Source: Alphaproteobacteria bacterium (GTDB lineage Bacteria > Pseudomonadota > Alphaproteobacteria > JAJTHO01 > CANGXP01). Taken from it: a stretch of 64,000 nt of DNA. Below the pieces are notes generated by a model, which was not told the DNA's origin, searched no databases, and saw only the letters and a list, made by a program, of their open reading frames with translations. Positions 15,206-32,219 of the stretch are shown in pieces (within the stretch, counting starts at the first letter, position 1; every line of letters starts with the position of its first letter). Made by a program: the position numbers and the translations under genes. Location: positions 4,065-68,064 of the forward strand of contig CANGXP010000001.1 of assembly GCA_947457935.1 (NCBI GenBank). Reading direction: 5' to 3'.

Positions 15206-15255
15206 GGTTAAGGGAAGTTTGCAGGCGTGGGCAACTTTATTTTGAAATGACTATA
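15125..15255. mobile_element. ~130-bp palindromic MITE (RPE-like), copy 1, inserted at the TA of the ancestral hemB stop
   Basis: Terminal inverted repeats TATAGTC...GACTATA, long imperfect stem, core GTGTAC-N6-GTAC; ungapped similarity to 23657-23787. Confidence 0.8.
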
Positions 15256-15257
15256 GT

Positions 15258-17297
15258 TTATTCCGCCGCCGTGGCACTCACCTGCTTCATCGCGTCTTTG
15301 ATGCGTTTTTTCTGCTCATTTTGCTGATGCTCTTCAATCCGTTTTTGCCGCATAAATTCTGGCATTGTTGGCGCAGGCGGATATTTACCCACACCGCCCC
15401 GTGCAGGATCTGGCGCAACAAGATATTTCAATTTTTTATGTTTAAAAAATGCGGGTGTGTCGCACAAAATTGGCTTATTCATATGGCTTTGCATCAACAC
15501 ATAGTGCTTGCCAGGTTCAATAGACATAAAGTCTTCAGGGCGAATGAGCGGCTGCCCCTGCATAGAACGCTGCATGTTCACCGCAAAGGGGTTTGTTTGC
15601 TTTGATAAACCAATGGTACGGCTTTTTGATTTTGTCTCCAGCGTCCGTTGCCCCACCATCTCTGAAAACCGCTTGGCTGTCACCTCGTTGTTCAACGTGA
15701 GTACCACTTTTGCCGCTGTGGTGGAAATAACCGTCTCGGTTTCATCCTTGCCATACTTTGACTGAATTTGCCCTAAATCCTGCCCAATCATCAGATAACT
15801 CACCCGCTGCCCCCGTCCTACGGCTGGTCCATCAAGCAAGGCTTGGAGTTTTGGCATTTGCGGAAACTCATCGAGGACAAAAATCGCATCACAAGGGCCT
15901 ACCTTTTGCCCATCGCGTGTTGTTGCCCCCGGTTTGTGTGCAACCAGCCATGCTGACAATGCTTCTACCAGCAATCCTGTAATTTTACCCAAAGCGCGAG
16001 CATCTTCTTGATTTACGCAAAGATACAACGATAACGGCTTCATCTCCCCCGTTGTGGGGTCTGTAATCCCGCGCACGTCCATAAACGAGAAATCACTTTT
16101 CTCCGTACGCGCCCGAATCGCGCTATTTTTAAAGACAATAAGTCCGCCATCTAAGCTGGACAAAATAGAGCCACGCTCTTTATCAGGTGTTTGTGCTAAC
16201 TGCGTAAATTCGTTCACCGCTCGCCCTGAATAGCCATATTCTCGCGCTTCTTTCACGGCATCCATGAGAAAATCTTTCACCACGTCGGCTGTCATGGCCG
16301 CCATGGGATTACTTTTTTTCAACGCTTCCACTTTATCGGCCGCGCTTAACAACCCTTCCGTCATCCAATCAATAAGCATCGGGATAGAGGCTTCACACCC
16401 CACCCACTCCTCTGGAATGCCCTTGTAATTGCCACTTTCACATTTCGCGACAATGTAATGCATAAAGCCCGCCATCGCCGCACGACCTTTTTTCGTCCAG
16501 TGCGGATCCGCCTGTCCTGTTGGCTCTTCAATAATAACGTTGGTGAGACGATCAATATACAAATCGCGGTTAGGCCCCATAGGCGGCATACACAGTGGCG
16601 ATAGCGGATTCCAACGGGGATAAAAAATGCCTTTTTCAGGGTCATCTTGCGCCGCCCACTCCAGTTTTAAACACACGCTGTGCAAAGAGCGATAGCCACT
16701 TGTGAGGTCAAACAACTCAGGCTTCACATCATTTACGATAATCGAGGCTTTATCACAGGTGAGAATGGTGGGCACAACAATCGCCACCGTTTTCCCTGTT
16801 CCAGGTGGCGCAACGCACAGCACAGAAAGCGTCTCACTTAATTGTAATAGTTTATTCCGCCATTCACCCAATACAATAATATTCCCAAACAGCTTCATTT
16901 TAACGACATCATCGTTGCGAGACAACCGCGCCGAGCCAAACATTGTTTCCTGCAGACTGTATGGATTTTTAACAAGCATGACAAATAGTAGTGCTGCACC
17001 CCCGAAAAAAGCAGTGACTATTTCTACTGGCACCCCCCCCAAACGCCAATCAACGGGCATATTAGGATTGCTATTGGCAATCCAATATTCATGGAATGCA
17101 AAAAAATCGCTAGGATTAATTAGTTTAAGCCAATATTCCCCCACAGCGTTTACAATCGGCGCACTCACGCCGTAACGCACAAACGTGAAAATAGATGTAA
17201 GTAGCAGCAACAAAAGAAAAAAAGTGAGAACGCCAAACACTATAGATTTTACAATCCATATCTTGGCTAAGCCTGATTCTCCAAGATCACTTTTCAT
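15258..17297 (-). CDS. virD4: Type IV secretion coupling protein VirD4/TraG
   Basis: Two N-terminal TM segments, VAPPGTGKT Walker A, VNDVKPEL, FVLDEFPQMPKL Walker B, QDLGQI..KYG. Confidence 0.93.
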   Translation of the reverse strand: MKSDLGESGLAKIWIVKSIVFGVLTFFLLLLLLTSIFTFVRYGVSAPIVNAVGEYWLKLINPSDFFAFHEYWIANSNPNMPVDWRLGGVPVEIVTAFFGGAALLFVMLVKNPYSLQETMFGSARLSRNDDVVKMKLFGNIIVLGEWRNKLLQLSETLSVLCVAPPGTGKTVAIVVPTILTCDKASIIVNDVKPELFDLTSGYRSLHSVCLKLEWAAQDDPEKGIFYPRWNPLSPLCMPPMGPNRDLYIDRLTNVIIEEPTGQADPHWTKKGRAAMAGFMHYIVAKCESGNYKGIPEEWVGCEASIPMLIDWMTEGLLSAADKVEALKKSNPMAAMTADVVKDFLMDAVKEAREYGYSGRAVNEFTQLAQTPDKERGSILSSLDGGLIVFKNSAIRARTEKSDFSFMDVRGITDPTTGEMKPLSLYLCVNQEDARALGKITGLLVEALSAWLVAHKPGATTRDGQKVGPCDAIFVLDEFPQMPKLQALLDGPAVGRGQRVSYLMIGQDLGQIQSKYGKDETETVISTTAAKVVLTLNNEVTAKRFSEMVGQRTLETKSKSRTIGLSKQTNPFAVNMQRSMQGQPLIRPEDFMSIEPGKHYVLMQSHMNKPILCDTPAFFKHKKLKYLVAPDPARGGVGKYPPAPTMPEFMRQKRIEEHQQNEQKKRIKDAMKQVSATAAE

Positions 17298-17308
17298 AAC
17301 TCTCTTCC

Positions 17309-18376
17309 TTACACAGAAGCAGAAACAGGGTTGCTTGCCTGTGTCTTTGCTTCTGATCGTATTGTTTTTTCGATGATATTCGGCGCATCTACTGCACTAA
17401 TTACACGCTGTCCAGAGCTTCTATCAATCTGTACAATTCGCCCAAAAGAGCGAGAGAGGATCTCAATCACAGCATCCGCATCCAAATTCGGGTTTTCCTG
17501 TGTTAAATTTTGCCAAAATGCACGCAAAGCCATCTCAGGGCTTTCTGCGTGAATAGTTGCCATAAAGTTTGAATGCCCCGTTGTCATCAAACGGTAAATA
17601 CTTTTTGAGTTGGTGACAGAAATTTCCCCGCAAATGATAATATCAGGTGTCATTCGCACCACGGAATCGAGAACGTGCGAATACGTCATTTTATTTGTGC
17701 CTGCTGTTCTTGAGACAACAAGATGCACGCGGTTCGCGTGAGGCACAATCACCTCCCGTGTATCTTCCACGGTAATAATACGCCGATCCCTTGGAATAAA
17801 TTCCACCAAGGCGTTCAGGAATGTTGTTTTCCCCGTTGATGTTGCCCCTGAAATTAGAACTGCCTCGCCGTTACTAATTGCACCAATCAAATCCTCATAA
17901 ACGTAGTCACTATAACGATGTTTATCTAACCCGCGATGCGCATCAAGCTCTTCTCGCTTGACTTCTTTAGTAAGCCTAAAATCATCCAAGACGAATTTTT
18001 TATCCGCATTAAAACGACGAATACACAAAGCCATCCCATGCGTATCGCCCATCTCGTAGCGCACATTAGGGCCAATAACTGCTTGGAAACGATGCCCCCC
18101 TGGTAAGGTAGCGGATAAAATCGGCAGTTGATTCACATCAAAATCTTGGTCTGTCACGTTCGCTAACATCCGACAAAGCGAAAAAATCCCGCGAATACTT
18201 ACCTCTGGAGCTGTTTGTGTAACCCAACCTTTCCCTATGTACTTAATACAAATTTCTTCAGGGCGATTAATCGATATTTCTTCGACATCTTTGTTTTCGT
18301 AATACACCTTGAGGGGTTTGAGCGCATTAAGCAGCAACTCATTTGACATGGTTGTGGTTTTAAACACGTCGCTCAT
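17309..18376 (-). CDS. virB11: Type IV secretion ATPase VirB11
   Basis: EISINRP, PILSATLPGGHRFQAV, SGATSTGKTTFLNAL, ITVEDTRE, RMTPDIIICGE. Confidence 0.9.
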   Translation of the reverse strand: MSDVFKTTTMSNELLLNALKPLKVYYENKDVEEISINRPEEICIKYIGKGWVTQTAPEVSIRGIFSLCRMLANVTDQDFDVNQLPILSATLPGGHRFQAVIGPNVRYEMGDTHGMALCIRRFNADKKFVLDDFRLTKEVKREELDAHRGLDKHRYSDYVYEDLIGAISNGEAVLISGATSTGKTTFLNALVEFIPRDRRIITVEDTREVIVPHANRVHLVVSRTAGTNKMTYSHVLDSVVRMTPDIIICGEISVTNSKSIYRLMTTGHSNFMATIHAESPEMALRAFWQNLTQENPNLDADAVIEILSRSFGRIVQIDRSSGQRVISAVDAPNIIEKTIRSEAKTQASNPVSASV

Positions 18377-18380
18377 ACTA

Positions 18381-19973
18381 TTATTTCCCTACAGTAGGCG
18401 GCGGCCCATAGTTAAACTGCGAACTGCCTTGCACAGGTGCAAACGCTTGGTTCGTTGGTGCACCTGCCGCTTCATTTTTTGTTCCCAGTTGCGCCGCATT
18501 ACCCAAAACTTCTGCTAGTTTTTGTGTTCCTGTGCCTAAATCGCCGCGTTGCAGTGCAAAGACTAATTGTCTTGCTTTTTCTAACGTTTCATTTGTTGCT
18601 GCAGAAGACGTGAGCAAGGTTGGCGTTTTCATCACCAAGTCTTGCGTCGGTGTTAGCAAAAAGCGCGTGCCACTGGGGATAGTGAGAATGGGTGTGGTGT
18701 CCACATAATCATTCAACAAGCGTTTAGCCTGAGAGGCAAATTCTTGCGCCAAATCCCGTCCTGCTTTTTGACCCGGCGTAAGCGTTTCTGAGGTTGTTGT
18801 GCCAGAACTCCCGCCACTATTGACGCCGCTAAAAGTCGTCGTCGTAGAATCCTTATTCGACAAGGCATACTCTAAACCAATGCCGATAGACGCAACCAAT
18901 AAAGGCGCAACATATCGATTGAACAACCGATAGTCTATGTAACCCACCATTCCATTGCGTCCCATGGGGTCACTTGCAGGCGATTGCACGGTAATATTAA
19001 CACCATCGGGACGAATAATCCGTGTCCATACAGCATCTAAACGTGACCGTCCTGTACGGCCTAAGCTTTGCGATGTGCCAATTAATCGTGATCCTGCGGG
19101 GATAAGAATATTCCGACCAGACGCACTGTAGACGTGATTCTCCACAATAGCCGTCATGCGACCACCACCAATTTGGGTGTTAATGGTGCTTTCTAAAACT
19201 GCAGGAATATATCTATCTGAGGTAATCATGCGATCCCGATTAACAGGATACGATGAAACTATCGGATCATACCCATAGGAGGCGTAGTCCTCATCGCTCA
19301 TTTTCCAACCTGCATTAACCCGATCTCCCGTTTGCAGTACCTGTAACGTGCCTGTTTTTCGCTGTTCTTGCAAGCGTTGGGCATTAATATACTCAAACGA
19401 AGGCGTGTACGGGATCACCTGTTCTGGCACTTGCAATGGCGGCGGCGGTGCATCTACTAACGCTTCACCAACGCCTGAAATTTGGACAAGTAAAGGGCTA
19501 TTTTTTGCACTGTGCGTTACAATAATCGTTGTTTGGTATGCACGCGGTTCTTGCGGGCGAAATGTCACATCAATGCGACAACTAGTTTTGTTGGGCCCCA
19601 TAATAAGCCCATCAGCACATGCCCCCCCTAGAGTAAACACGCTTTGTTCACTTGCCAGCTGCACTTGTTGAATGGTAAGTGGCTCATCCCCTTCTACGTT
19701 TAAGATAACGGGCAGCGTAAGCTCTCCACCAACTTTAACTCCTGAAAAAGTAAGCGTACTAGTAAGCGTTGCCAATGATGAAGGCAACGTGGGTTTTACT
19801 TCTTGCTTGTTGACCACATCAAGCAAATCGCGCACGGGATCTGCTGATTTTGGCGGCGGGGGAGCCTCTTTCTCACCACAACTCGCTAAGAATAAGCACA
19901 AAACCAAACACAGCGCGACAACAGCCTTATTGCGCTTCGTATTTAATGGACGCGATGCTATCTCGTAAAACAT
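18381..19973 (-). CDS. virB10: VirB10/TrbI-family protein with an N-terminal lipoprotein signal and an Ig-like (ASH/choice-of-anchor-D-like) domain
   Basis: C-terminal TrbI domain (IPAVLESTINT, IPAGSRLIG, WTRIIRPDG, DPMGRNGMVGYID, PILTIPSGT); lipobox FLASC at Cys32; beta-sandwich TLTFSGVKVG...CRIDVTFRP...VQISGVG. Confidence 0.85.
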   Translation of the reverse strand: MFYEIASRPLNTKRNKAVVALCLVLCLFLASCGEKEAPPPPKSADPVRDLLDVVNKQEVKPTLPSSLATLTSTLTFSGVKVGGELTLPVILNVEGDEPLTIQQVQLASEQSVFTLGGACADGLIMGPNKTSCRIDVTFRPQEPRAYQTTIIVTHSAKNSPLLVQISGVGEALVDAPPPPLQVPEQVIPYTPSFEYINAQRLQEQRKTGTLQVLQTGDRVNAGWKMSDEDYASYGYDPIVSSYPVNRDRMITSDRYIPAVLESTINTQIGGGRMTAIVENHVYSASGRNILIPAGSRLIGTSQSLGRTGRSRLDAVWTRIIRPDGVNITVQSPASDPMGRNGMVGYIDYRLFNRYVAPLLVASIGIGLEYALSNKDSTTTTFSGVNSGGSSGTTTSETLTPGQKAGRDLAQEFASQAKRLLNDYVDTTPILTIPSGTRFLLTPTQDLVMKTPTLLTSSAATNETLEKARQLVFALQRGDLGTGTQKLAEVLGNAAQLGTKNEAAGAPTNQAFAPVQGSSQFNYGPPPTVGK

Positions 19974-20033
19974 TACCCTATTCCTATTCTTAGATTACAC
20001 TAAAACCGTTAAAAATTCCATATTTTTTCTAGT

Positions 20034-21281
20034 TTATAGTGTAGGCGTATTGAAACGAATTAATCGTGGTTTTAACAAAAGCATGTACGCGGCAGGATCC
20101 TCTGAATATGAAAGACCATATAACAATAATGGATTTTCAACCGTATGAGAGAAACTCAGAGAGACACTGTTTTTTGGTGTCATCCCCTTCGTATCGCACG
20201 ATGCTTTATTTGGATTTTGCATTGTCATGAAAAGATTTGTTGCCACGTCCACGTCCTGCGGCGTGCTCTGTGCTGTAACCGTTATAAGTCCCAAGGGGCC
20301 TGTGTCCGTAGGTGATTTACAATACGGCACCTTCGGCACATCACCCATAGAAAAGGTCAGCGGGGAAGCAGTCATCATCGTCACAATACCTGCGTCAATT
20401 TTGGTTACACTCATACCGTAGGGCGCGAAAACACTACGAAAATCCTCATTTGCTAACGCCCCTTGAAATACCCCCACACCAGAATTTGGGTCATGCGCTA
20501 TTTTTTCTAACCCCATCAAGCGCCAATCCAGCGGTTTGGTAGGCGGCATATCAAACCGCCACAATACAGCTTGATAGGCTACAACCATCTTTTCGGCTCG
20601 CAATTGTTGTAAATAGCTCTTTACGGTCGAGATACTGCCCCGCGTCAGCTGAAAAGACATCACCCGCGTAGACGCGTCAAACTCAATTTTTTTTGCACCC
20701 AAACTCTGTACTGTATTGATGATGCTTTCATAGGGGGCTTTAAGAATGTCAGGCGTTTTAGAGGATCTATTATTCCCTCCCATGTACCCCAAGGGCGGCA
20801 TAATGACGTTATACGTCTCAACACTTTCAATTTGTAAAACGCCTTGGTTCAAACGATATACAAATGCGCCTTCAGCACTAAGTTGCTCTAAGGCTGTTGC
20901 AAAATCACGCGGTAAGGACACTGCACTAAGTTTTTTATCCTGTACCGTATCAGAAATATACAATCTATACGGCACGTTCTGCATCAGCCGCAACAACACG
21001 TCTGAAAGATAGGCATCTTTTAGTGTTATGGGCGGGATAGTGGTATTGGGCAGCGGCTCTGAAACATATGCGGCCTGTAGCGCAAAAAAATTCTTTGTTG
21101 CAAGGCTGGCACGCTCTGCAATCGGCGGTATGAATTTTTTCTTATCAAAAAGCATGTCACGCGATTTTTCACTGCTTACCGCTGCTGTAACGGGTGCTTT
21201 TGTATCAACAGAAACGACCTTACAGCCCGTTATCGCAAGGATACAACAGAGTAATCCTATTTTGTGAAATCGCATCATCAT
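20034..21281 (-). CDS. Secretin-like outer-membrane lipoprotein (PilN/BfpB-like N-terminal domains, shortened C-terminus)
   Basis: Lipobox AITGC at Cys20; ITLKDAYLSDVL...FATALEQL...YRLNQGVLQI resembles a secretin N0/STN domain; VVAYQAVLWRF...LDW resembles the start of a secretin core; by-eye recognition only. Confidence 0.55.
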   Translation of the reverse strand: MMMRFHKIGLLCCILAITGCKVVSVDTKAPVTAAVSSEKSRDMLFDKKKFIPPIAERASLATKNFFALQAAYVSEPLPNTTIPPITLKDAYLSDVLLRLMQNVPYRLYISDTVQDKKLSAVSLPRDFATALEQLSAEGAFVYRLNQGVLQIESVETYNVIMPPLGYMGGNNRSSKTPDILKAPYESIINTVQSLGAKKIEFDASTRVMSFQLTRGSISTVKSYLQQLRAEKMVVAYQAVLWRFDMPPTKPLDWRLMGLEKIAHDPNSGVGVFQGALANEDFRSVFAPYGMSVTKIDAGIVTMMTASPLTFSMGDVPKVPYCKSPTDTGPLGLITVTAQSTPQDVDVATNLFMTMQNPNKASCDTKGMTPKNSVSLSFSHTVENPLLLYGLSYSEDPAAYMLLLKPRLIRFNTPTL

Positions 21282-21322
21282 GTGTTGCCATGCTTTTTAT
21301 AAAGGGCTTTGATTGCTAAGCT

Positions 21323-22630
21323 CTACCGCCCAATCAAAGGTTCTTGAACGGGCACAGGCGTTGTTGGCACCGATGCACCAGCGCTCGTACTTACAGGCGC
21401 TGAACGGATTTGTGACGGTAACGATGGTGCAATAGAGCCTTTTGGCTTGTCTTCAAACAAATATAAATCATCATCGTTTGTAATCTTATTCCCTGTCACA
21501 CCCACGGGTGTTGAAGAGTACACACACACCACACGCGAACCGTTACGCAGGGTAAAGTTGCCAATTGCTTCAGCAATAAAAATATTCCCTGTTGACCCTG
21601 CAGTGCGTGTATTCACCATGGTGTCAACCCCATCAACCACACGGCTAATAACAGGCCTCCGCACGGTATCTGCCTTATCGCCATAATCAAAATATGTCCA
21701 AATACCATCCGTAAACACACGCAACGGCGCAATTTCAATATCTTCAGGTGTTGGCGCAAAAATCTTCAAATCAAAACGGAGATTCTCAGGACTAAATGCA
21801 ATTTTGCGAATGTAGTCAGGCGGTGTCACAATATTACTCGGCGTTGCCGCAGCACCAGACATCCCCGCATCTGTTGAAGACGGATTGGGTTGCGCATTAC
21901 CACCAAGTGGGTTTTGCGCGGCACTGCCTGCAGCAACATACACTGTAAAGTCTGTAATTTGCGTTGAATTCCACCCCTCAGAACGTACATAAAAGTTATA
22001 AATATTTCCCGATGTCCCAATAATAGTCATATTGGTATCAGCCCCTGAGTGACTCGGGCGCACAACCAAGATATTTTGCTTTACGCGTGTGGCTTCAAAC
22101 ACCATCGTATCGCCGAGAATAATCCGCTCCACGTTTTCCCACGCTGGTAGCTCAATGGTTGTGGTCATAAATTCGCGGGTACGAATCGGCATAACAAAAT
22201 CAGGTCGCCACACAAAACGCATAATACCAGGTGCCGTCTGCCCTGTGGAAGCAATCGGACTATCCCATTTTTTTTGCAATGCCCCAACAGGCAACGTTGA
22301 GCTACGTGTCATGGTGGGGAATTGACCTGATGCTTGACTATTAATATCTTGCTCTGTTCTAGCCGCCAACGGACTAGGCCCCGAAGAAGGAGCAGAGAAT
22401 TGTTGCGCTGGATCATTGAAATTTGGCACAGGGGCGGCACCGAATCCTTGGCTTGCTCCCGTCGCAGGATTGCCTAATGGGGGACGAATTTGTGCAACAG
22501 CAGTGTGTGAGAGAATACTGCACACAAGAAATCCGCTCAAAGAAATAAGGGCGGATTGTTTTTTAAGAGAACAAATGTTTTTCATAAAGATATCGCTCTT
22601 TTTGTGATTAATATTTTTAGTTTTGGGCAA
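21323..22630 (-). CDS. virB9: Type IV secretion outer-membrane core protein VirB9/TrbG
   Basis: Signal peptide, IRTREFMTTTIEL, ILGD, TNMTIIGTSGNIYNFYV, PLRVFTDGIWTYFDY, TLRNGSRVVCV. Confidence 0.88.
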   Translation of the reverse strand: MPKTKNINHKKSDIFMKNICSLKKQSALISLSGFLVCSILSHTAVAQIRPPLGNPATGASQGFGAAPVPNFNDPAQQFSAPSSGPSPLAARTEQDINSQASGQFPTMTRSSTLPVGALQKKWDSPIASTGQTAPGIMRFVWRPDFVMPIRTREFMTTTIELPAWENVERIILGDTMVFEATRVKQNILVVRPSHSGADTNMTIIGTSGNIYNFYVRSEGWNSTQITDFTVYVAAGSAAQNPLGGNAQPNPSSTDAGMSGAAATPSNIVTPPDYIRKIAFSPENLRFDLKIFAPTPEDIEIAPLRVFTDGIWTYFDYGDKADTVRRPVISRVVDGVDTMVNTRTAGSTGNIFIAEAIGNFTLRNGSRVVCVYSSTPVGVTGNKITNDDDLYLFEDKPKGSIAPSLPSQIRSAPVSTSAGASVPTTPVPVQEPLIGR

Positions 22631-23369
22631 TGCTGTAGTCCAACACTGTAAAGCCTAAAGGGTTAAAATATTGTTCTGCCAGTGCAACATTTCGGGCGAC
22701 ATAATCAACACGTAGTTGCGCCCTCCATTTTCCTTTTAACAAAACATTCCCCAGCCTATCTGTGTCAGTCGTTACATATTCTACCTCAACGTAGTTTTGG
22801 CTTTTGCTCACCGTGCTTGTAATGTCTACACTACGGCTAATGCCTTTTTGCTGCAGCTCTTGATATGGCTGATTAATCGACATCAAAAACGTATTATACT
22901 CCGCTTCAGGCATACGATATTTCAGATACTCAACCCAGCGGCGTTGTTGATCTGTTTGATCCAAAATAATTTCTTCCCGAACCTTTACATATTCACCTGC
23001 CATTTTCTCTGTGAACAGTTGAATCCCTGCTTGCCCTTTAATAAAAGGCTGAATTTGTACTATTTGCTCGTTTTTATCGTTGAATGTCACTAGCATCGGC
23101 TCAATTTTTTTGAGCGGTACCAAGGCATATACCGTCAACACCAAAACAATATTCAGCAACATGCTCATGTAAAACGCGACCGCAAACACACGCGTTGTCC
23201 ACAAATATCGACGCCCCTCCAGCACAGGAATACGCACATCTTTGGGGTACGCGCCTAGCGTATCTTTATGATCGCCATTAGAAGCAGACTTTAACAAAGG
23301 ATCAATCCCCTCTTGCGGTGCAACGGGTCTGAAATATCCTTTAAGCTTTTGTCCTAGGTTCTCACTCAT
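22617..23369 (-). CDS. virB8: Type IV secretion inner-membrane protein VirB8
   Basis: Single TM followed by LVPLKKIEPMLV, EYVKVRE, and C-terminal NPLGFTVLDY. Confidence 0.88.
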   Translation of the reverse strand: MSENLGQKLKGYFRPVAPQEGIDPLLKSASNGDHKDTLGAYPKDVRIPVLEGRRYLWTTRVFAVAFYMSMLLNIVLVLTVYALVPLKKIEPMLVTFNDKNEQIVQIQPFIKGQAGIQLFTEKMAGEYVKVREEIILDQTDQQRRWVEYLKYRMPEAEYNTFLMSINQPYQELQQKGISRSVDITSTVSKSQNYVEVEYVTTDTDRLGNVLLKGKWRAQLRVDYVARNVALAEQYFNPLGFTVLDYSIAQN

Positions 23370-23370
23370 A

Positions 23371-23562
23371 TTATGATTGCTTCTGCCATCCGTTATAATT
23401 TTGCGGTACTTCTAAGCACGCACAAGGACTCCGTTTTAAATCATCATTGTCGCGTCCAATCCCCACAGGGTCGGGCAATGTTTCGCTGCCACGGACAAAA
23501 TCACATCCAGATACAAGCAACAACGCTGCTACGCCGCACCAGAGATATTTTTTGTTTTTCAT
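23371..23562 (-). CDS. virB7: Small lipoprotein, VirB7-like
   Basis: 63 aa, lipobox LVSGC at Cys20, KRSPCAC motif, position immediately upstream of virB8. Confidence 0.7.
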   Translation of the reverse strand: MKNKKYLWCGVAALLLVSGCDFVRGSETLPDPVGIGRDNDDLKRSPCACLEVPQNYNGWQKQS

Positions 23563-23599
23563 AAAGACTCCTGAGTTATTTCTATTGGTTTAACAGGTA

Positions 23600-23607
23600 A
23601 TGGTTAA
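23600..23607 (-). promoter_or_regulatory. TTAACCAT CtrA-type half site upstream of virB7
   Basis: Plus-strand ATGGTTAA, about 40 bp upstream of the virB7 start; short motif, could be chance. Confidence 0.3.
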
Positions 23608-23656
23608 AATAATCCTTATGTTGCTTCCGCATCACCAAAATTCTTGAACAACATGC

Positions 23657-23787
23657 CATAACTATTCCAAAACAAAATTAGCTTCTGGCAAAAACAACTG
23701 CAATCGAGCGAATATTTACATCTTGATAGATGAGTGAGGTTAAGGAAAGTTTGCAGTAGTGAGTAATTTTGTCTTGGAGTAACTATA
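23657..23787. mobile_element. ~130-bp palindromic MITE (RPE-like), copy 2, decayed, inside the T4SS locus
   Basis: Ungapped match to 15125-15255 (94/125 identical by hand count over 15131-15255); stem pairing retained with compensatory changes. Confidence 0.75.
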
Positions 23788-23842
23788 TCAGAAAACATCT
23801 TAATTTAATGGTATACAAAAATATAAATTTTTGCAAACCAAA

Positions 23843-23858
23843 AGTGATTTATATCACA
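23843..23858. promoter_or_regulatory. CRP/FNR-like palindrome AGTGA-N6-TCACA
   Basis: One mismatch to TGTGA-N6-TCACA; 13 bp (TTTATATCACAAT) are repeated at 30844-30856 upstream of the first pilin gene. Confidence 0.4.
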
Positions 23859-23868
23859 ATAAAAACAA

Positions 23869-24891
23869 CTAGTACTGCCTGTCAAAATGTTCTCTATTAA
23901 TTGTCTGCATACTTTTTACAGGGGCGCATACAGAATGCATGGCTTCCATGGTTTGCTTCAAAAAAACACGTTCTTGTTTTAGTGCATTGAGGTTCACAAG
24001 ATCTTGGCGCACACACCCAGGCAAAACAGTCGGCTTATCTTTGACAGATGTATCAGGCGCAATACATGGCTTCATAGAATTTTTGATAAGCTCGCTCATT
24101 ACCTTTTTAAGATGCTCTACATAAACAGGAATATTTGACAAATACGTTAGAGATGCCGCCGCACAATTTAAATTTTGCTGCTGTAGAACTGCTCTTACGC
24201 ACCAATCTTTCCGCGTTGTCTCCGCTGGCGAATATTGGCTTTTCGCGCTCCCCCTGCCCTGCTCATCGTAATAACCGTAAAGCAGCGCAGTCCCCAAGAC
24301 ATACTTCGTCGCACATTGTTTAAACTGCTCTGTTTTCTTATCTGTACCACAAATTGTATCCAGCGTGGTTGATTGCGAAACTTCTTCAATACTACGCAAA
24401 CAAGAAGAAGGACTGGTAAGGTCAATTAAATCTGTGTTTGGCCCTTGCGTGGCAAGTTCTCTTTTTTGTGCTTCATGCCCCAAATTGAGCACGGAATCAG
24501 GATTCTTTAAAACTTCCTGCAGTCCGTCAGGTGGCGGGGAAGGTAAAGTTTTAACAACACTTTCTCCCCATATTTTAGATTTTCTCTCTTCATCTTTACG
24601 TTTCTCCTCGTGCAATTTTTTTTGCTCTTCAGCCGTAATCTCTTTTGATTTATTGACAATATAACGACCTACATCAAAAATACAGATAGCACGCGTACCG
24701 CAAATATTAGGGCACTTCATAAACAACATAATCTTTTCCCCAGGAGGGAAATAGCAAGATGGAATAGCAGCTAATGCCCGGCAAACAACAGGACAAATGA
24801 AGAACTGACCGCTTTCTGCACGTTTTGGGGGCATCACGATAAACGCAAAGCATACAATAACGATACATAATCTTGTTAGGTTGTTAAGCAC
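23869..24891 (-). CDS. Secreted Cys-rich hypothetical protein in the T4SS operon (340 aa)
   Basis: N-terminal signal peptide, many Cys residues; C-terminal motifs shared with 24916-26526. Confidence 0.7.
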   Translation of the reverse strand: MLNNLTRLCIVIVCFAFIVMPPKRAESGQFFICPVVCRALAAIPSCYFPPGEKIMLFMKCPNICGTRAICIFDVGRYIVNKSKEITAEEQKKLHEEKRKDEERKSKIWGESVVKTLPSPPPDGLQEVLKNPDSVLNLGHEAQKRELATQGPNTDLIDLTSPSSCLRSIEEVSQSTTLDTICGTDKKTEQFKQCATKYVLGTALLYGYYDEQGRGSAKSQYSPAETTRKDWCVRAVLQQQNLNCAAASLTYLSNIPVYVEHLKKVMSELIKNSMKPCIAPDTSVKDKPTVLPGCVRQDLVNLNALKQERVFLKQTMEAMHSVCAPVKSMQTINREHFDRQY

Positions 24892-24915
24892 GTATTTGCC
24901 CTTTTATTGCCTTGC

Positions 24916-26526
24916 TTATCGACATTCTGTGGGGGTTCCGATTAACCCTTTAATGCCTTCACAGGCAGTGCAAAGAGCAGTCACCTCCCCCATTGCCAAA
25001 TCTGCCGTCAACCCATAAAACTCGATAGCGGCAAGTGACTGAATATCACCCCGAACGCTTCCAGAATTCGCCACGACCTCTGTTAAGGTAGGACATAACG
25101 ATTTAGGCAAGTTTTGCCCTGCAACAACACATTCTCCAGAATTGGACACCAATTGCTGCGCTTTAATGGCGCTATTATTGACATAATTCAGAGAAGTGGT
25201 CGCACATTTCAAAGCACAGTTACGGGCGGCATCTAAGCGATACCGCGTTACTGTTGCTTGGCATTCTGCCTTAGGCGCATTACTGCCTCTCCCCGTCAGT
25301 CCCTTCTCAATAGCAGCATACATCTTATCTGCTGTTGCTGCACCTGTGTCAGCACCTCCAGACAGCTTCTTGTCCTTAAAGACTTTTAGCTTGCCAGAAT
25401 TATTTTGATCACTACCACCCGCATTAGGATTACTAATATCAAATCCTGGATTAAGGTTTATACTCGCCTCTGCAGCCTTTAATGTAAACTGAGCTGGGTC
25501 AGAATTCTCTCCACCGTTAAATGGGCCCATTACAGAAATAATCGTGCCTGCAATCTGCTGCGCCGTTGTAATGGGGCTTCCACCTGATCCTATTTGTGTA
25601 AAAGCGTTTGTAAAAACTTGGATACTTGAAAAAACTACATTAATCAAACTTTGGGCCTGCGCCTGAAAATTTCCAAGATCTGTAGCAAACTGTTTTAGGC
25701 CAGCGTCCCCTGTAATTTCGCCAATAGCGCCTGTAAAAAGCTGAACTGTACTCAGTGCTTGCAATCCTGTGTCCAAAATTCCTTGAGACGAGTTAGCAGA
25801 AAAACCATTCGGAGTACTCCCCCCAAACCATTGAGGGTTCTCGCTACGGACAGACGCCTGAAACGACGTTTCACCATATCTGCCAAGCGAATGTGCCATG
25901 AATTTTGCAAGATCAACAGGCGGTGCAGTTGTGCCTAAAACGCTGTTGATCCGCTTTTGATTTTTACACTGCTCAAACATTGATTTGAGCTGCTGTGTCA
26001 TTGTCATTAACTGCTGAATATTTGTAACGGTATTTGACGGATCACTAACGAAAACGCCTAAAATGCCAAGGAATGGCCCTAATAGACTGAATATACCTGC
26101 TGCAATATTCAATAAGTCGGAAATAAATCCGGGTGTCATGCAAATCAGTTGGCTCAGATACGGATTATCCGCAAAAAATTTATCAAAATCGGGTAGATCC
26201 CATTTTCCTTCCGTGCCCGTTAATTTTGGGACAAGATCGGATGGAACAAAACTAATCCCCACTTGCCCTGGTGCGGGCGGCCCTATTTGAGGCGCTATGC
26301 TTAAATTTCCTGAAAACGTTGCAGATGTGGCTGCATTCGGAACAAAAACAGTCGGCTGCGAGGCAAAATTAATAACACTGCCAACTTTAGCATCAGGATT
26401 CAGTTGTCCGTTTGCATCAACAAGAGGCACAGCAGGCAGAGCCCCCTGCGCCGCCATCGCCACAGGGGCACCGTGCAAAAACAGTGATATAGCAACTAAT
26501 AATACGGCAATACAACGATGGAACAT
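24916..26526 (-). CDS. Secreted hypothetical protein in the T4SS operon (536 aa), possibly VirB5/TrbJ-like
   Basis: Signal peptide, hydrophobic hairpin, NIQQLMTMTQQLKSM coiled segment, Cys-rich C-terminus. Confidence 0.7.
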   Translation of the reverse strand: MFHRCIAVLLVAISLFLHGAPVAMAAQGALPAVPLVDANGQLNPDAKVGSVINFASQPTVFVPNAATSATFSGNLSIAPQIGPPAPGQVGISFVPSDLVPKLTGTEGKWDLPDFDKFFADNPYLSQLICMTPGFISDLLNIAAGIFSLLGPFLGILGVFVSDPSNTVTNIQQLMTMTQQLKSMFEQCKNQKRINSVLGTTAPPVDLAKFMAHSLGRYGETSFQASVRSENPQWFGGSTPNGFSANSSQGILDTGLQALSTVQLFTGAIGEITGDAGLKQFATDLGNFQAQAQSLINVVFSSIQVFTNAFTQIGSGGSPITTAQQIAGTIISVMGPFNGGENSDPAQFTLKAAEASINLNPGFDISNPNAGGSDQNNSGKLKVFKDKKLSGGADTGAATADKMYAAIEKGLTGRGSNAPKAECQATVTRYRLDAARNCALKCATTSLNYVNNSAIKAQQLVSNSGECVVAGQNLPKSLCPTLTEVVANSGSVRGDIQSLAAIEFYGLTADLAMGEVTALCTACEGIKGLIGTPTECR

Positions 26527-26579
26527 AACAAGACTCTCTTCTAATTATACTAATACTGTAACATAAATCACTTATTACA

Positions 26580-29027
26580 TCAAGTTGAATCTAAATAAAT
26601 ATTGAGCCAATCGGGGCCTGCATCGCGCATCAACTGCTCTGCAAGGCTTCGTGAAGCCTGATCTGAATAAAACACCCGAATTAAGGGACCCAGCGCATTC
26701 AAGTTATTGTCTAAAATAACGGACTCACCCGTTGCTCGTTTCATCAAAACAGAATAGCGCATCCCCCGCGCACTTGGTAACTTGCCTTTTATATACGCCC
26801 ACTCACGGTCTGTTAAACCCCAATCGGCATACTCGCGCTCTTGCGCTTGGGGGTTTTGAAAGAAGAACGTGGTTTGTGCTTGTCCGCGAATGGCTTCACC
26901 CAATCCTGCTTGCACAATCGCTTCAGGACGTTGAAAGGCGGAGATAATCGCCGAACTCTTTTTGCGATATTCTTGCAACATCTGCATAAAATAGTTGCGG
27001 AAAATCGGGTGCTTCACCACAGGTTCTGTTTCATCGATAAAGATGAGCGCAGGGGCTTGTAATTCACTAATCGCTGCCTGAATACGGTGCATCAGGTATA
27101 AAATAACTGCCCGCGCCAAATCGTCATGCTCATAAATCCGCGTAAAATCAAGAATAACAAGGCGAGTGGATGTTAAATCTAGTGTATCTTGCTGCGCATT
27201 AAAAATTTTGCCATACACAGCAGGATCAACCCATTTATTCAATCCCTTACGCAGCGGACGTGCCTTGCTGAAACATGCATCATAAATATTCGCGAGAGAC
27301 CGTTTTTCAAACGGCAGTCCCGGGTTTTCAAACGCTGCTTCAATTGCAAAACCAATTTCTTCAATCGAATCAGGGTCTTCGCATTCTGATAACGCTTGTA
27401 AGAAGGCACGCAAAAACGATCTATTTTGTACGTTGTCGGTACATTGGAAGGGATTCAACGCTGATTCCGTGCCCTCCATGTCCGATCCTTCAAAGGTAAT
27501 GTAACTGCCATTCACCGCATTACAAAAAATGTACGCGCCCCCATGTCTATCCACCATGTAACAGCGTAATTTTTCATGGCGCATTGCCATGGCGGTAAGG
27601 AAGTTGATGAGCGTGGTTTTTCCACTCCCCGTAGGGCCGATCGCCACCGCGTGTGCAACCGCCGCCTTTGCTTCACTAATATGAAACTGAAAGGCGTACG
27701 CCGTACCCGAAGACGTGCGGAACGTTGTAATAGGACCATCCCCCCAATCAGAATTGCGCAGTCCAATTGGCGGGCGTTCTAAGGTTAAGTGATTCGCTAT
27801 GTTGCGTGAAAAAAGTTTATAGGGTCTTGGCCAAATTTTATAGCCGGGGAACTGACAAAACCAACTTGCTTGCGCTGCTGCGCTTTCGTGCACAGGGGAA
27901 ATCCCAAAGCCTGTTGCAATTTGCTTGATCTCAGATTCCACCAAATCAAGCTCTTCTTGGGTTTTTCCGTACGCAAAAATCGTCAAGGAATACGCGCACA
28001 TTGCTTGCGCCGAATCACTATTTCCCTCAATCCGATCAATCGCATCTTCAAACTGGTTCACAGCACCGGGGCTAAAACGCTGCGCCATCGACAATCTGTA
28101 TTGTTGCGTCACGGTGAACGCTGCTTTCGTCTTGCTCCACGGCTCAATGGCGTGCATCACCACAATTTCGCCATGCACTGTGTTGATCGAGTTAATAAAC
28201 GCTTCGTAGGTAAAATCACCTAGCGAACGGATACCTATCACCGCACACAACAACTGTTTGTTACCGCTTCTAAAGGTCACAAGACCGTTATCCCCGCCAA
28301 ATTCCACCTGATCCGCGCATAACGCATCAGAAACCCCCGAACCAATCCCTCCTGGTTTGGGTTGTGATAGCGGACTAATCAGCCGTGCTAAAAATGCAAG
28401 GGGGCGCTTTTCCGGTTCAGGATCATGCTGTGACATTTCCTTACAACCATATTTATTCAAAATGGTTTTGGTAACCTCCACCGAACCCGCTAATTTTGAA
28501 AGCGGATTTCGCACCTTACCCGATATCGACAAAACAAGAATCTGGCGATTGTTATAGGACTGACTAAAACTATTATTCCACCGCCTTGCAATCTCGCGCA
28601 ACACAGGATTAGAATGAGTTGATTTTGCAACTAGATCCACACGTTCTCGTAATAGAAAAGAACGAATCGCCACTTCACTATCAGACAAGGTGTCAACCCA
28701 ATCCTTGCGCGCAAGAAACAAAACTTCTCTCTCGTGAGGATTGAGGAAGGTATCGTCTAATCCCGCAACTTCCAAGCATTGCGCCAGTGTGCCGTCCCTG
28801 CATGCCAAGGTCTTACCATCAGGCAAAACGCGATCAAACGGCAAAAAATCTGCTAAGCGTGTTTCTTCAGGGGCAGGCAATACCAGCTTTGAAACAGCGG
28901 GCATAATAAATCCCACAAAAGCCGCTGCACCGCCGATAATGCCAATAATCCCTGCTATAAGCGCAGTGAGGCTAAACGTTTCTGTGAACGCACTAATAAC
29001 ATCGGGAGTCGCATACTCAAGGGACAT
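26580..29027 (-). CDS. virB4: Type IV secretion ATPase VirB4
   Basis: 815 aa, AHAVAIGPTGSGKTTLINFL Walker A, LIFIDETE Walker B, ISAFQ; follows virB3. Confidence 0.93.
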   Translation of the reverse strand: MSLEYATPDVISAFTETFSLTALIAGIIGIIGGAAAFVGFIMPAVSKLVLPAPEETRLADFLPFDRVLPDGKTLACRDGTLAQCLEVAGLDDTFLNPHEREVLFLARKDWVDTLSDSEVAIRSFLLRERVDLVAKSTHSNPVLREIARRWNNSFSQSYNNRQILVLSISGKVRNPLSKLAGSVEVTKTILNKYGCKEMSQHDPEPEKRPLAFLARLISPLSQPKPGGIGSGVSDALCADQVEFGGDNGLVTFRSGNKQLLCAVIGIRSLGDFTYEAFINSINTVHGEIVVMHAIEPWSKTKAAFTVTQQYRLSMAQRFSPGAVNQFEDAIDRIEGNSDSAQAMCAYSLTIFAYGKTQEELDLVESEIKQIATGFGISPVHESAAAQASWFCQFPGYKIWPRPYKLFSRNIANHLTLERPPIGLRNSDWGDGPITTFRTSSGTAYAFQFHISEAKAAVAHAVAIGPTGSGKTTLINFLTAMAMRHEKLRCYMVDRHGGAYIFCNAVNGSYITFEGSDMEGTESALNPFQCTDNVQNRSFLRAFLQALSECEDPDSIEEIGFAIEAAFENPGLPFEKRSLANIYDACFSKARPLRKGLNKWVDPAVYGKIFNAQQDTLDLTSTRLVILDFTRIYEHDDLARAVILYLMHRIQAAISELQAPALIFIDETEPVVKHPIFRNYFMQMLQEYRKKSSAIISAFQRPEAIVQAGLGEAIRGQAQTTFFFQNPQAQEREYADWGLTDREWAYIKGKLPSARGMRYSVLMKRATGESVILDNNLNALGPLIRVFYSDQASRSLAEQLMRDAGPDWLNIYLDST

Positions 29028-29310
29028 ATTTTCTTATTTTTGGTGTTTTTATAAGGTTTTTCGTACTTTTTCGACTTACTGCCCATGCTTGTATTAATGT
29101 TGTCATATGCGGCTCTCGTGCACCTTGTGCCGCAATGAACAAATGTGACAAGAAAAAACTAGCAATAAAAATTAGAGGGCTAATTCCTGCCAAGCCCAAT
29201 CCATACACCATTAACATCGCATGCACACCCATATTTGCCATTGCAGGCATTTGAGGAGCCCAAAACATGGTGGAAGGCAGAGCAACAACGCGGAGAATTT
29301 TTTCTGGCAT
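29017..29310 (-). CDS. virB3: VirB3-like membrane protein
   Basis: 97 aa, ALPSTMFWAP, two hydrophobic segments, REPH motif; overlaps the virB4 start. Confidence 0.75.
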   Translation of the reverse strand: MPEKILRVVALPSTMFWAPQMPAMANMGVHAMLMVYGLGLAGISPLIFIASFFLSHLFIAAQGAREPHMTTLIQAWAVSRKSTKNLIKTPKIRKYVP

Positions 29311-29382
29311 AGCAGCATCCTATACAGATTTTGATAATAAAACATGAACGATTTTGGAAAATTTTGAGGAAAGTAAGAAAAA

Positions 29383-30039
29383 TTACTTTCCTGTCCCCAC
29401 AAAAGCCTCAACAAAACTTACGGCTACCGCAATAATTGCCATCCCTGCCGTGGTTGCGAATATCCAACTCCACCGAAACTTCCCGAAAATACCCAAAATC
29501 CCTACGGAAATGATTGATACCGCTGCCGCTGTATACAACAAACTTTTTGCATCTTCTGCAATATAGCTGTTGGTTCTTGTTAGCGTGTTTGAAACATCCT
29601 CAAACTTTCCAGTGCTTGTTGTATTGGCATTAATATACTCGATCCAATCTCGCGTGTACATTGCAATAGAGAGTAGAGCAAGTCCACCAATCAGCGCGAA
29701 CGCCCAACTCCACGGCATTTTACCTGTCATTGCCATGCCGCCCACACCCAACATTCCTAAAACAGCCAGACTTTTCAAAATGGGAATGGACTTTTCTAAA
29801 ACGTCGTTCCCCTGCGTTATCGCAACACCAAATACATTCGCTGCATCCGCAGGAGACTCAATCGTTAAGAAACTCAACATCATCGCAAAAAACAACAGCA
29901 TTCTATGACGCAGATGTCGATCTTGGCTATTTTGTATCACAACAGGATTCATCTTAGGTGCAAACGCGCCGCGCACAAAAAGCGTTGCGAGAAGCCCTGT
30001 AAAACAAAAATACACCCATTGTTCCATATCAAACCACAC
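29383..30039 (-). CDS. virB2: Tandem double VirB2/TrbC pilin-domain protein
   Basis: Two pilin-like hydrophobic hairpins: MTGKMPWSW and IFGKFRWSW. Confidence 0.7.
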   Translation of the reverse strand: MWFDMEQWVYFCFTGLLATLFVRGAFAPKMNPVVIQNSQDRHLRHRMLLFFAMMLSFLTIESPADAANVFGVAITQGNDVLEKSIPILKSLAVLGMLGVGGMAMTGKMPWSWAFALIGGLALLSIAMYTRDWIEYINANTTSTGKFEDVSNTLTRTNSYIAEDAKSLLYTAAAVSIISVGILGIFGKFRWSWIFATTAGMAIIAVAVSFVEAFVGTGK

Positions 30040-30043
30040 TGTC

Positions 30044-30385
30044 CTATTTCACAACAAACTGCATATAATAATATGTTCCCGATATTAGGGCTGTCGACCC
30101 GATAATACTGCCTACCCACGGCCAGCTCATCTTCCCAAACATGCCAAGTGCACCTACACCCAGCGTGGCTAATCCTGCCAATCCATATGCAATATTTTTC
30201 AAATAAACAGGTACGTTTTGAAAGCGTGGCGTAACGTAGTGAAGTGGCGTCTTCACTGCCTCGTTTTTATAATCCACGCTATAATTTGCAAAGCAATCAG
30301 TACTCAACACGCACACAAAAGCACAAAATAAAACAAAGAATAATAAGATGCGGAGTTTTTTTTGTTCAATTCTAAACATCATCAT
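30044..30385 (-). CDS. virB2: VirB2/TrbC pilin
   Basis: Signal peptide, then IAYGLAGLATLGVGALGMFGKMSWPW hairpin. Confidence 0.75.
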   Translation of the reverse strand: MMMFRIEQKKLRILLFFVLFCAFVCVLSTDCFANYSVDYKNEAVKTPLHYVTPRFQNVPVYLKNIAYGLAGLATLGVGALGMFGKMSWPWVGSIIGSTALISGTYYYMQFVVK

Positions 30386-30429
30386 AATTCCTAAATAACG
30401 CTAGTATGGCTTTGGGGTTACAGGTGAGA

Positions 30430-30834
30430 TTACGGTGGAGTCACAAAGGTATACGTTTGATTTTGATTTTCTGGTGTTTCAAACGCATCTTTTTTCCCTG
30501 TAATATACTCAACACCGTACTGTGCAGATGCCATCATCAATAATGCCCCCACAAGAATAAAAAACCTGTTCCACCGAAAACGCCCAAAAAACGCCATTGC
30601 GCCCGTTGCCGTTGCCCCTAGTCCTGCGAGTCCGAAAAGCATTTTTTGGCTATATTGCGTACCATTTTTGACGATTTTCTCTCCATTATCAAAAACATTC
30701 TTGAAGGGATCTTTTGTTATAGCCGCCGATGGCGGCGTAGGTGCAACGGGCGCAGCATTAGCAGATGCACCTATAGCACAGGCAACAATAACAACAAAAA
30801 AACAGAGCATGAACGCCTTTAGATTATTTTTCAT
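30430..30834 (-). CDS. virB2: VirB2/TrbC pilin
   Basis: Signal peptide, then LFGLAGLGATATGAMAFFGRFRWNRF hairpin. Confidence 0.75.
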   Translation of the reverse strand: MKNNLKAFMLCFFVVIVACAIGASANAAPVAPTPPSAAITKDPFKNVFDNGEKIVKNGTQYSQKMLFGLAGLGATATGAMAFFGRFRWNRFFILVGALLMMASAQYGVEYITGKKDAFETPENQNQTYTFVTPP

Positions 30835-30903: not shown

Positions 30904-30918
30904 TTAATTTTCTTTTAA
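30904..30918 (-). promoter_or_regulatory. Full CtrA-type site TTAA-N7-TTAAC upstream of the T4SS operon
   Basis: Minus strand reads TTAA AAGAAAA TTAAC, 70 bp upstream of the first pilin ATG. Confidence 0.6.
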
Positions 30919-32147: not shown

Positions 32148-32219
32148 AGTGCTTGTGTTTCTCGTAACCTTCAGACAAAAGAATATGCTTTATACTTCTA
32201 TTGTTCAAAACATACCACG

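Follow-up and report, generated by a model that had tools for sequence, protein, structure and literature searches.

Within a 64,000-nucleotide window of the genome of an uncultured freshwater alphaproteobacterium (contig CANGXP010000001.1 of assembly GCA_947457935.1), we analysed the minus-strand genes at positions 15258-30834, and we conclude, with a probability of roughly 0.7, that they make up the principal locus of this organism's sole type IV secretion system (T4SS), a P-type VirB/VirD4 machine that now resides in the chromosome as a vertically inherited organelle. We describe it as a clade-wide VirB/VirD4 variant marked by an operon-encoded secretin homologue and by a VirB10 carrying a lipobox and an immunoglobulin (Ig)-like domain. 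It departs from the canonical machine by the secretin placed between virB9 and virB10, by this modified VirB10, by Cys-rich proteins in the VirB5/VirB6 slot and by multiplied and fused pilins. The gene order running from three virB2 genes to virD4, proposed in a preliminary description made from the sequence alone, was borne out by Pfam and NCBIfam models, as were the three TrbC/VirB2 genes with four pilin domains in total, the gene at 29383-30039 holding two of them. VirB4 had TrwK as its best match in the PDB (E 6e-34). The open reading frames (ORFs) of 415, 63, 340 and 536 amino acids gave no direct match to any family model, and their signal peptides or lipoboxes could be read in the sequence.

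The 415-residue lipoprotein has N0-like and N3-like domains, a shortened secretin domain and a terminal '...LLLKPRLIRF' motif. No direct Pfam or NCBIfam match to Secretin/PilN was obtained with this protein or with its T4SS-linked relatives, NCBIfam returned only spurious lipoprotein and TonB matches for the T4SS-linked group, and a PDB sequence search with the 415-residue protein gave nothing meaningful. Its family hidden Markov model (HMM), run against 1.84 billion representative proteins, recovered 60 proteins at E <= 1e-3, and PF00263 (Secretin) was present in 48 of the 59 aligned sequences (the query and 58 HMM matches). When 12 T4SS-linked proteins were aligned, profile to profile, with 30 classical lipoprotein secretins, hhalign reached a probability of 99.94% (E 8e-37) over 393 columns that begin at the lipobox and run through to the '...PR.IRF' motif at the C-terminus, a result that does not depend on any structural model.

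Fold comparison was carried out on two AlphaFold2 (AF2) models. The first, computed from five close sequences, was poor, with a predicted local distance difference test score (pLDDT) of 52, and all ten of its significant PDB matches (E <= 0.001) were secretins with BfpB at the top. The second, computed from a 63-sequence alignment, reached a pLDDT of 84 and a predicted template modelling score (pTM) of 0.79, and each of its top 50 PDB matches was a secretin or a secretin N-domain, the best being BfpB (9u5s_A, E 1.9e-12), with InvG, PilQ, GspD and pIV among the further fold matches. Compared with classical members, the T4SS-linked proteins have three deletions in common, of about 15, 15 and 25 residues, all inside the secretin domain. 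Profile and fold comparison thus turn the 'secretin-like lipoprotein' of the preliminary description into a genuine, trimmed secretin homologue. As the curated models miss this protein and a search of PDB sequences yields nothing, we place it in the secretin family as a distant and trimmed member.

The position of this gene is conserved. It occupies the virB9-virB10 slot in loci L013, L015, L016 and L017, whose proteins are its closest non-orthologous homologues (23-29% identity), and the order virB9-secretin-virB10 was also found in three other GTDB families in a class-level sample (L068, L069 and L071). A search for the same arrangement in other genomes, suggested in the preliminary description, therefore showed the secretin slot to be kept in at least eight loci and at least four GTDB families. 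The secretin-bearing loci follow a common order of pilins, virB3, virB4, two to four secreted Cys-rich genes, a lipoprotein of ~60-70 amino acids, virB8, virB9, the secretin, virB10, virB11 and virD4. With a threshold of E <= 1e-5, the family HMM found the secretin in five of the six genera of the order among the 14 genomes listed, a set without the genome behind L016, itself a carrier of the gene. We found no published description of a secretin gene in this kind of T4SS.

The second distinguishing component is VirB10. Its N-terminus shows a basic stretch, a hydrophobic stretch and a lipobox (FLAS-C32), followed by an Ig-like domain (~residues 67-169), so that lipobox and Ig-like domain take the place of the N-terminal region found in other VirB10 proteins. 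After a Pro-rich linker comes a complete TrbI domain (250-447). Judging from the sequence, VirB10 seems to retain both antenna helices, with a long loop rich in Ser, Thr and Gly between them. The lipobox Cys is conserved in all four relatives that were read (L013, L015, L016 and L017), and Pfam Ig matches in the VirB10 of relatives were weak in L016 and faint in L017. The 'lipoprotein-Ig-VirB10' originally proposed is thus recognizable by a conserved lipobox and an Ig-like domain, and with the secretin homologue it upholds the idea of a remodelled outer-membrane complex. The 63-residue lipoprotein carries a VirB7-like motif, PEPVGIG..DLKRSPCAC, which recurs at the same position in relatives, in a Microvirga plasmid system and in one locus of the related clade B introduced below.

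The two genes downstream of virB4 had been described as secreted Cys-rich paralogues. Secretion signals and Cys-richness were both found, while the case for paralogy is weak, BLASTP aligning 88 C-terminal residues at E 0.023. Homologues of the 536-residue protein occur in close relatives only, at 36-97% identity, and three of the eight members of its family gave weak matches to models of TrbJ (E 0.012-0.029) or VirB5 (0.11); a weak match to the Pfam T4SS family (0.83) was also obtained within the family. When this family was compared with plasmid VirB5-like proteins, hhalign returned an E of 0.016 with a probability of only 2.9%, placing the 'VSDPSNT..QQL' stretch on the VirB5 N-terminal 'PVIDPT'; from these alignments a VirB5 origin is plausible. 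Neither the HMM of the 536-residue family (Cys536) nor a jackhmmer search with the 340-residue protein (Cys340) found a homologue in the other loci searched, the same-position genes of L012, L013, L015, L068 and L069 included, and by these searches the Cys-rich proteins cannot be traced beyond close relatives. Within the 536-residue family, the signal peptide (MFHRCIAVLL.A.SLFLH.AP..MA) is identical at 21 of 25 positions in all eight sequences, although these homologues are elsewhere just 43-97% identical, and is directly followed by a hypervariable region, the Cys-rich C-terminus being conserved. Such conservation of a signal peptide is unusual and may reflect a constraint on RNA, translation or recognition.

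A sharp change of evolutionary rate was seen within this one operon when the same-genus pair was compared (29383-30834 versus L008 7947-9642): the three pilins are 70-80% identical and the adjacent VirB3 and VirB4 97-98%. The nonsynonymous divergence (dN) between these genomes is 0.15-0.21 for the pilins and 0.29 for the secretin (64% protein identity), 7-15 times faster than VirB4. Fast evolution of the pilins, the secretin and the Cys-rich proteins is as expected of surface-exposed parts.

As the assembly (1.83 Mb, 72 contigs, 99.6% complete) extends far beyond the window, we also looked for T4SS components elsewhere. The reported lack of virB6 applies to the window only, as a genome-wide search gave five VirB6/TrbL-like paralogues on two other contigs. 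PF04610 matches four of them (E 1.5e-6 to 0.014, one above the cut-off), and ORF listing together with a paralogue HMM raised the count from four to five. Each has a signal peptide and 5-6 further predicted membrane helices, and they have motifs in common and lie in two tandem arrays. In the 1266-residue paralogue the membrane domain is followed by an M23 peptidase domain (PF01551, E 1e-26) and a long charged C-terminal tail, and this peptidase could, judging from its sequence, replace the missing VirB1; virB1 was not found in the locus, and a genome-wide search for it was not made. VirB6-like ORFs of 1162-1605 amino acids were also found in relatives. A polytopic 410-residue ORF next to the pilins (30915-32147) was considered as a VirB6 and rejected, being the polysaccharide protein VpsF. 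A fourth pilin gene lies at C28:3142-3534 (C numbers denote contigs of the assembly). VirB3, B4, B7, B8, B9, B10, B11 and D4 are all single-copy genome-wide, also with HMMs trained on the lineage, and the only genomic paralogue of VirB11 is a Tad ATPase on contig C12. Once the five VirB6 and the fourth pilin gene are counted, the T4SS is complete.

To place the system we used a quick IQ-TREE analysis of 54 VirB4 sequences, which included no named Rickettsiales sequence. All secretin-bearing systems formed a single clade (clade A, SH-aLRT 98), and its sister group (support 87) consisted of a second clade (clade B) together with three systems carried on plasmids of Microvirga, Erythrobacter and Sphingosinicella. 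Clade B comprises 21 small-genome alphaproteobacteria with VirB4 36-43% identical; in one representative VirB8 is duplicated, five VirB6 genes stand in tandem, VirB10 is a giant of 2831 amino acids and a secretin is lacking. The VirB4 of the three plasmid systems is about 33-38% identical, that of typical plasmids 24-27%. Arrays of multicopy, enlarged VirB6 located away from virB4 were present in most sampled genomes of both clades. In this clade B genome, G036, the gene for the giant VirB10 homologue follows virB9 (L091 2514-11009, G036:C14), the genes with the VirB8 duplicate run B8-B7-B8-B9, and the five tandem VirB6 lie on the same contig, ~10 kb from virB11 and ~20 kb from virB9. We had considered clade B as the rvh (Rickettsiales vir homologue) system because of its VirB8 duplicate and five tandem VirB6, and withdrew this assignment since virB4 is not followed by virB6 genes there.

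These results bear on how distinct the system is from rvh. The hallmarks of rvh are duplicated VirB4, VirB8 and VirB9, multicopy VirB6 and no VirB5 (PMC11077975, 10.1101/479196), to which the lack of a relaxase and scattered genes are added (PMC11077975). The preliminary description held that the locus matches no established system, which is too strong, as enlarged multicopy VirB6, the absence of a detected relaxase and gene scattering are listed rvh traits (PMC11077975). It could accordingly be argued that we are dealing with a divergent member, or a sister, of the rvh effector T4SS that has acquired a few lineage-specific accessory genes. Enlarged VirB6 genes arrayed in tandem at a distance from the core, several VirB2 genes, genes scattered among housekeeping genes in relatives, no relaxase among three families searched and the VirB8 duplicate and VirB6 array of the related clade B would all fit. 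However, no duplicate of VirB4, VirB8 or VirB9 was found here even with lineage-trained HMMs, the 536-residue protein with its weak signals is a possible VirB5 relic, and neither a secretin nor an Ig-bearing VirB10 is mentioned in the rvh descriptions (PMC11077975, 10.1101/479196). Homologues of one clade B member are, moreover, labelled as '[Alphaproteobacteria bacterium]' metagenome-assembled genomes (MAGs) and not as Rickettsiales. Relatives of the present system are MAGs with the labels 'Holosporales bacterium' or 'Alphaproteobacteria bacterium'. A PDB sequence search with VirB8 returned only three chains named VirB8 and nothing that bears on rvh. Membership in rvh is therefore unlikely in our view, if still the most serious alternative; the system is rvh-like in its domestication and its VirB6 expansion but lacks the duplications that characterize rvh.

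In the literature, a 2025 review of Holosporales names type VI secretion as the group's conserved system and is silent on any chromosomal T4SS (PMC11909080), a paper on Hepatincola likewise presents type VI rather than type IV secretion as typical of Holosporales (PMC9992710), and the word 'secretin' is absent from a December 2025 review of T4SS nomenclature. We found no published description of this T4SS.

We also considered that the secretin homologue might be a passenger, or a part of a Tad or type IVb pilus, that sits in the operon by chance. Among solved structures it comes closest to BfpB, the secretin of a type IVb pilus; it diverges rapidly (dN 0.29 versus 0.02 for VirB4) and went undetected in one genus of the order; and some relatives have it apart from virB9, for instance adjoining hisI in L014 and ~190 kb from virB4 in genome G010. 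Against these points, the virB9-virB10 slot is held across families at 23-29% identity, the three deletions common to the T4SS-linked proteins set them apart from classical secretins, and the intergenic gaps of 41 and 60 bp fit co-transcription. In addition, the region C12:31660-41029 resembles a Tad/Flp-type pilus cluster that has a 511-residue secretin of its own (C12:37897-39432), so the T4SS-linked secretin is not needed by the Tad pilus. In that cluster, HMM or BLAST support extends to the secretin and to a 552-residue CpaF/TadA-like ATPase, and the neighbouring TadZ-like, TadB/C-like, CpaB-like and prepilin peptidase-like genes were assigned by size and order only. We regard a chance association as very unlikely and retain the secretin homologue as a genuine member of the T4SS operon.

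The remaining question was whether the locus is still mobile. The preliminary description had called it chromosomally fixed, a view sustained by the presence of one VirB4 and one VirD4 in a nearly complete genome and by housekeeping flanks. The GTDB order contains 14 species in four families, and all 14 have exactly one VirB4, with identities of 64-100% that track taxonomy (97% within the genus, 79% within the family and 64-71% in other families). Between same-genus genomes VirB4 shows a dN of 0.020 and a synonymous divergence (dS) of about 1.2, that is, a dN/dS of about 0.016, and both VirB4 and VirB3 are under very strong purifying selection. The parts are dispersed in some relatives: in L011 virB4 stands alone between gyrB and prfA, and in L012 virB3-B4 is followed by four secreted genes that we could not assign, by B7-B8-B9 and then by unrelated genes. 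The reported absence of a relaxase could be extended from the window to the whole genome for the families searched, PF03432, PF08751 (TrwC) and PF03389 (MobA_MobL), none of which gave a significant match; MOBH, MOBC, MOBV and MOBT were not searched. The absence of a tRNA attachment site and of an integrase, also claimed beforehand, agrees with a window without any tRNA gene or integrase context and with flanks of ordinary chromosomal genes. The G+C content of the locus is not distinct from its surroundings.

Together, the single VirB4 throughout the order, its strong constraint, the dispersed genes and the lack of a detected relaxase argue for an old, vertically inherited machine and not a mobile element. 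A system for DNA transfer that is conjugative or derived from an integrative and conjugative element, whether still active or in decay, and whose relaxase escaped detection would account for the retained VirD4, for the MobA/MobL relaxase beside the same core gene order in the nearest plasmid systems and for an empty search of three families, yet it sits so poorly with everything just listed that we rank it last, marginally behind a chance association of the secretin.

The best-supported function that we infer for this inherited machine is contact-dependent protein translocation or attachment, since VirD4, VirB4 and VirB11 are intact and conserved and no relaxase of the three families was found. 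In the mechanism we propose, VirD4, VirB4 and VirB11 would energise a one-step, contact-dependent translocation of proteins through an envelope complex made of VirB7, VirB9 and VirB10, the latter apparently with its antenna helices. A secretin-derived ring would surround or extend this complex, and the variable pilins and Cys-rich proteins would be the exposed parts that contact the target. That the secretin is physically incorporated, that the substrate is protein rather than DNA and that there is a target cell are all inferred from sequence.

Several points weigh against this reading. The TM-scores between the model and solved secretins do not exceed 0.34, a low value that may reflect the comparison of a monomer model with the conformation of a subunit in an assembled ring. 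The alignment behind the high-confidence AF2 model included classical secretins, a dependence eased by the agreement between hhalign and the first model with its shallow alignment. VirB10 seems to keep its antenna helices, so a secretin is not obviously needed as a pore, and its lipobox could instead be an uncleaved membrane anchor. The secretin HMM (E <= 1e-5) was empty for the two genomes of one genus among the 14 listed; either divergence or loss of the gene may explain this, and the secretin may hence be dispensable. Finally, no effectors were identified, and the genome has neither ankyrin-repeat proteins nor domains of the Xanthomonas XVIPCD type (PF20410), which leaves no specific indication of either a eukaryotic or a bacterial target. 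The killing, predation or host attachment suggested in the preliminary description is conjecture.

A more ambitious version of the proposal is that a clade of uncultured small-genome Alphaproteobacteria possesses a T4SS built around a secretin-derived outer-membrane ring and a lipid-anchored VirB10 whose Ig domain stands where the inner-membrane anchor would normally be, and that this design evolved once from a relaxase-bearing plasmid system and was then fixed in the chromosome. We hold this version tentatively, at somewhat less than even odds. If true, it would describe a hybrid of a T4SS and a pilus secretin, the first T4SS with a secretin as outer-membrane conduit or collar. The T4SS outer-membrane complex is understood as an assembly of VirB7, VirB9 and VirB10, and a secretin homologue in the virB9-virB10 slot across families would add an architectural class to a heavily studied machine and open a route to studying the passage of pili or substrates through the outer membrane. 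In a freshwater lineage that is poorly known, the system seems to be the single secretion machine that is conserved, and it is thus the obvious handle on the lineage's interactions with other cells. It also provides, beside rvh, a second example of a domesticated plasmid-type T4SS with multiplied VirB6 and scattered genes.

The features of the locus and the VirB6 paralogues encoded elsewhere are collected in Table 1. On the left the locus is flanked by dnaE, an ABC/FtsX pair, MarR and hemB, and on the right by VpsF, two acyltransferases, mfd, recG, nrd and glnA. The preliminary description let virD4 end 1 bp from the hemB stop; the hemB stop is at 15205 and the virD4 stop at 15258-15260, an actual distance of 52 bp. 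This gap is filled by a palindromic repeat element that abuts the virD4 stop and also supplies the last 27 codons of hemB, hemB residues 327-354 matching other copies of the element. The two copies in the window have the same orientation, are ~135 bp long and about 75-80% identical by eye, and end in inverted repeats (TATAGT...ACTATA); further copies were found on contigs C2, C3, C5, C23, C43 and C50. A 60-residue 'ORF' at 23616-23798 was rejected as a gene, as it is a translation of this genome-wide element. On the other side, the first acyltransferase-3 gene beside VpsF (32016-33290) is represented in the same-genus locus L008 (6223-6602) by two short fragments only, of 35 and 98 residues, so the surface-polysaccharide acyltransferase gene adjoining the T4SS is variable between close relatives.

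Table 1. Features of the T4SS locus (window coordinates) and VirB6 paralogues on other contigs (contig:coordinates).
Feature	Coordinates	Strand	Basis
Palindromic repeat element, hemB/virD4 junction	15124..15257 (about)	.	134 bp; hairpin fold z = -3.1
VirD4 coupling protein, 679 aa	15258..17297	-	PF02534 E 7e-53, TraG-D_C, TrwB_AAD_bind; sole genome copy
VirB11 ATPase, 355 aa	17309..18376	-	TIGR02788 E 4e-61, PF00437
VirB10 variant, 530 aa	18381..19973	-	PF03743 E 3e-39; Ig families PF22073, PF22544
Trimmed PilN/BfpB-type lipoprotein secretin, 415 aa	20034..21281	-	Lipobox ITG-C20; profile and fold homology
VirB9, 435 aa	21323..22630	-	PF03524 CagX E 1e-25, TIGR02781; single copy
VirB8, 250 aa	22617..23369	-	PF04335 E 3e-24; single copy
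VirB7-like small lipoprotein, 63 aa	23371..23562	-	Lipobox VSG-C20, position, conserved motif; no family model
Palindromic repeat element copy, virB7/Cys-rich spacer	23625..23790	.	DNA alignment with hemB-junction copy
Secreted Cys-rich protein, 340 aa, hypervariable	23869..24891	-	Signal peptide; no family match
Secreted Cys-rich protein, 536 aa, VirB5 slot	24916..26526	-	Possible, highly diverged VirB5/TrbJ derivative
VirB4 ATPase, 815 aa	26580..29027	-	TIGR00929 E 3e-104, PF03135; sole genome copy
VirB3, 97 aa	29017..29310	-	PF05101 weak, E 0.004; in relatives, orthologues lie ahead of virB4
Tandem two-domain VirB2/TrbC pilin, 218 aa	29383..30039	-	PF04956 E 2e-12, two stretches; lineage HMM also two domains
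VirB2/TrbC pilin, 113 aa	30044..30385	-	PF04956 E 1e-6
VirB2-like pilin, 134 aa	30430..30834	-	PF04956 weak, E 0.004; lineage pilin HMM 2e-35
VirB6 paralogue, 1266 aa	C53:1041-4841		M23 peptidase fusion
VirB6 paralogue, 429 aa	C53:4838-6127		
VirB6 paralogue, 654 aa	C37:8081-10045		
VirB6 paralogue, 647 aa	C37:10042-11985		
VirB6 paralogue, 484 aa	C37:12000-13454		

Compared with known systems, the locus keeps the core set and the order B2-B3-B4-...-B7-B8-B9-B10-B11-D4 of canonical P-type machines (mating-pair formation type T: Agrobacterium VirB, R388 Trw and MobA/MobL plasmids). The Helicobacter ComB system for DNA uptake has no dedicated VirB11 and VirD4 genes, whereas both are present here, and the bacteria-killing T4SS of Xanthomonadales (X-T4SS) differs by the XVIPCD effector domain, which is missing from this genome. 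The Microvirga plasmid system has the VirB7 motif PEPVGIG..KSPCAC in common with ours, but it and the Erythrobacter and Sphingosinicella plasmids carry a MobA/MobL relaxase, a single in-operon VirB6, an ordinary VirB5-like gene and no secretin, in the canonical order B2-B3-B4-B5-like-B6-like-B7-B8-B9-B10-B11-D4, and the Microvirga VirB10 lacks the lipobox Cys.

With the type IVb pilus secretins BfpB of enteropathogenic Escherichia coli (EPEC) and PilN, the 415-residue protein has in common the lipobox, the N0-like and N3-like domains, the secretin domain and the '...PR.IRF' ending. It differs from them by being about 100-170 residues shorter, by the three deletions in its secretin domain and by the location of its gene in a VirB operon, with no type IVb pilus genes seen alongside. 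In the papers searched, the secretin-like domains reported from T4SS parts are only of the N0 type, namely in the VirB7 of Xanthomonas and the DotD of Legionella (PMC3093366, PMC2951367). They are precedents for N0 modules on the T4SS outer-membrane complex, differing from the present case, in which a separate protein aligns over its full length to a lipoprotein secretin and VirB7 is small. Lastly, rvh resembles the system in its chromosomal location, vertical inheritance, tandem enlarged VirB6, extra VirB2 and, in relatives, dispersed genes, whereas here VirB4, VirB8 and VirB9 are single, a secretin-family lipoprotein and a lipobox/Ig VirB10 are added, virB4 is followed by genes for Cys-rich secreted proteins, one of them weakly VirB5/TrbJ-like, and most genes stand together in one locus.

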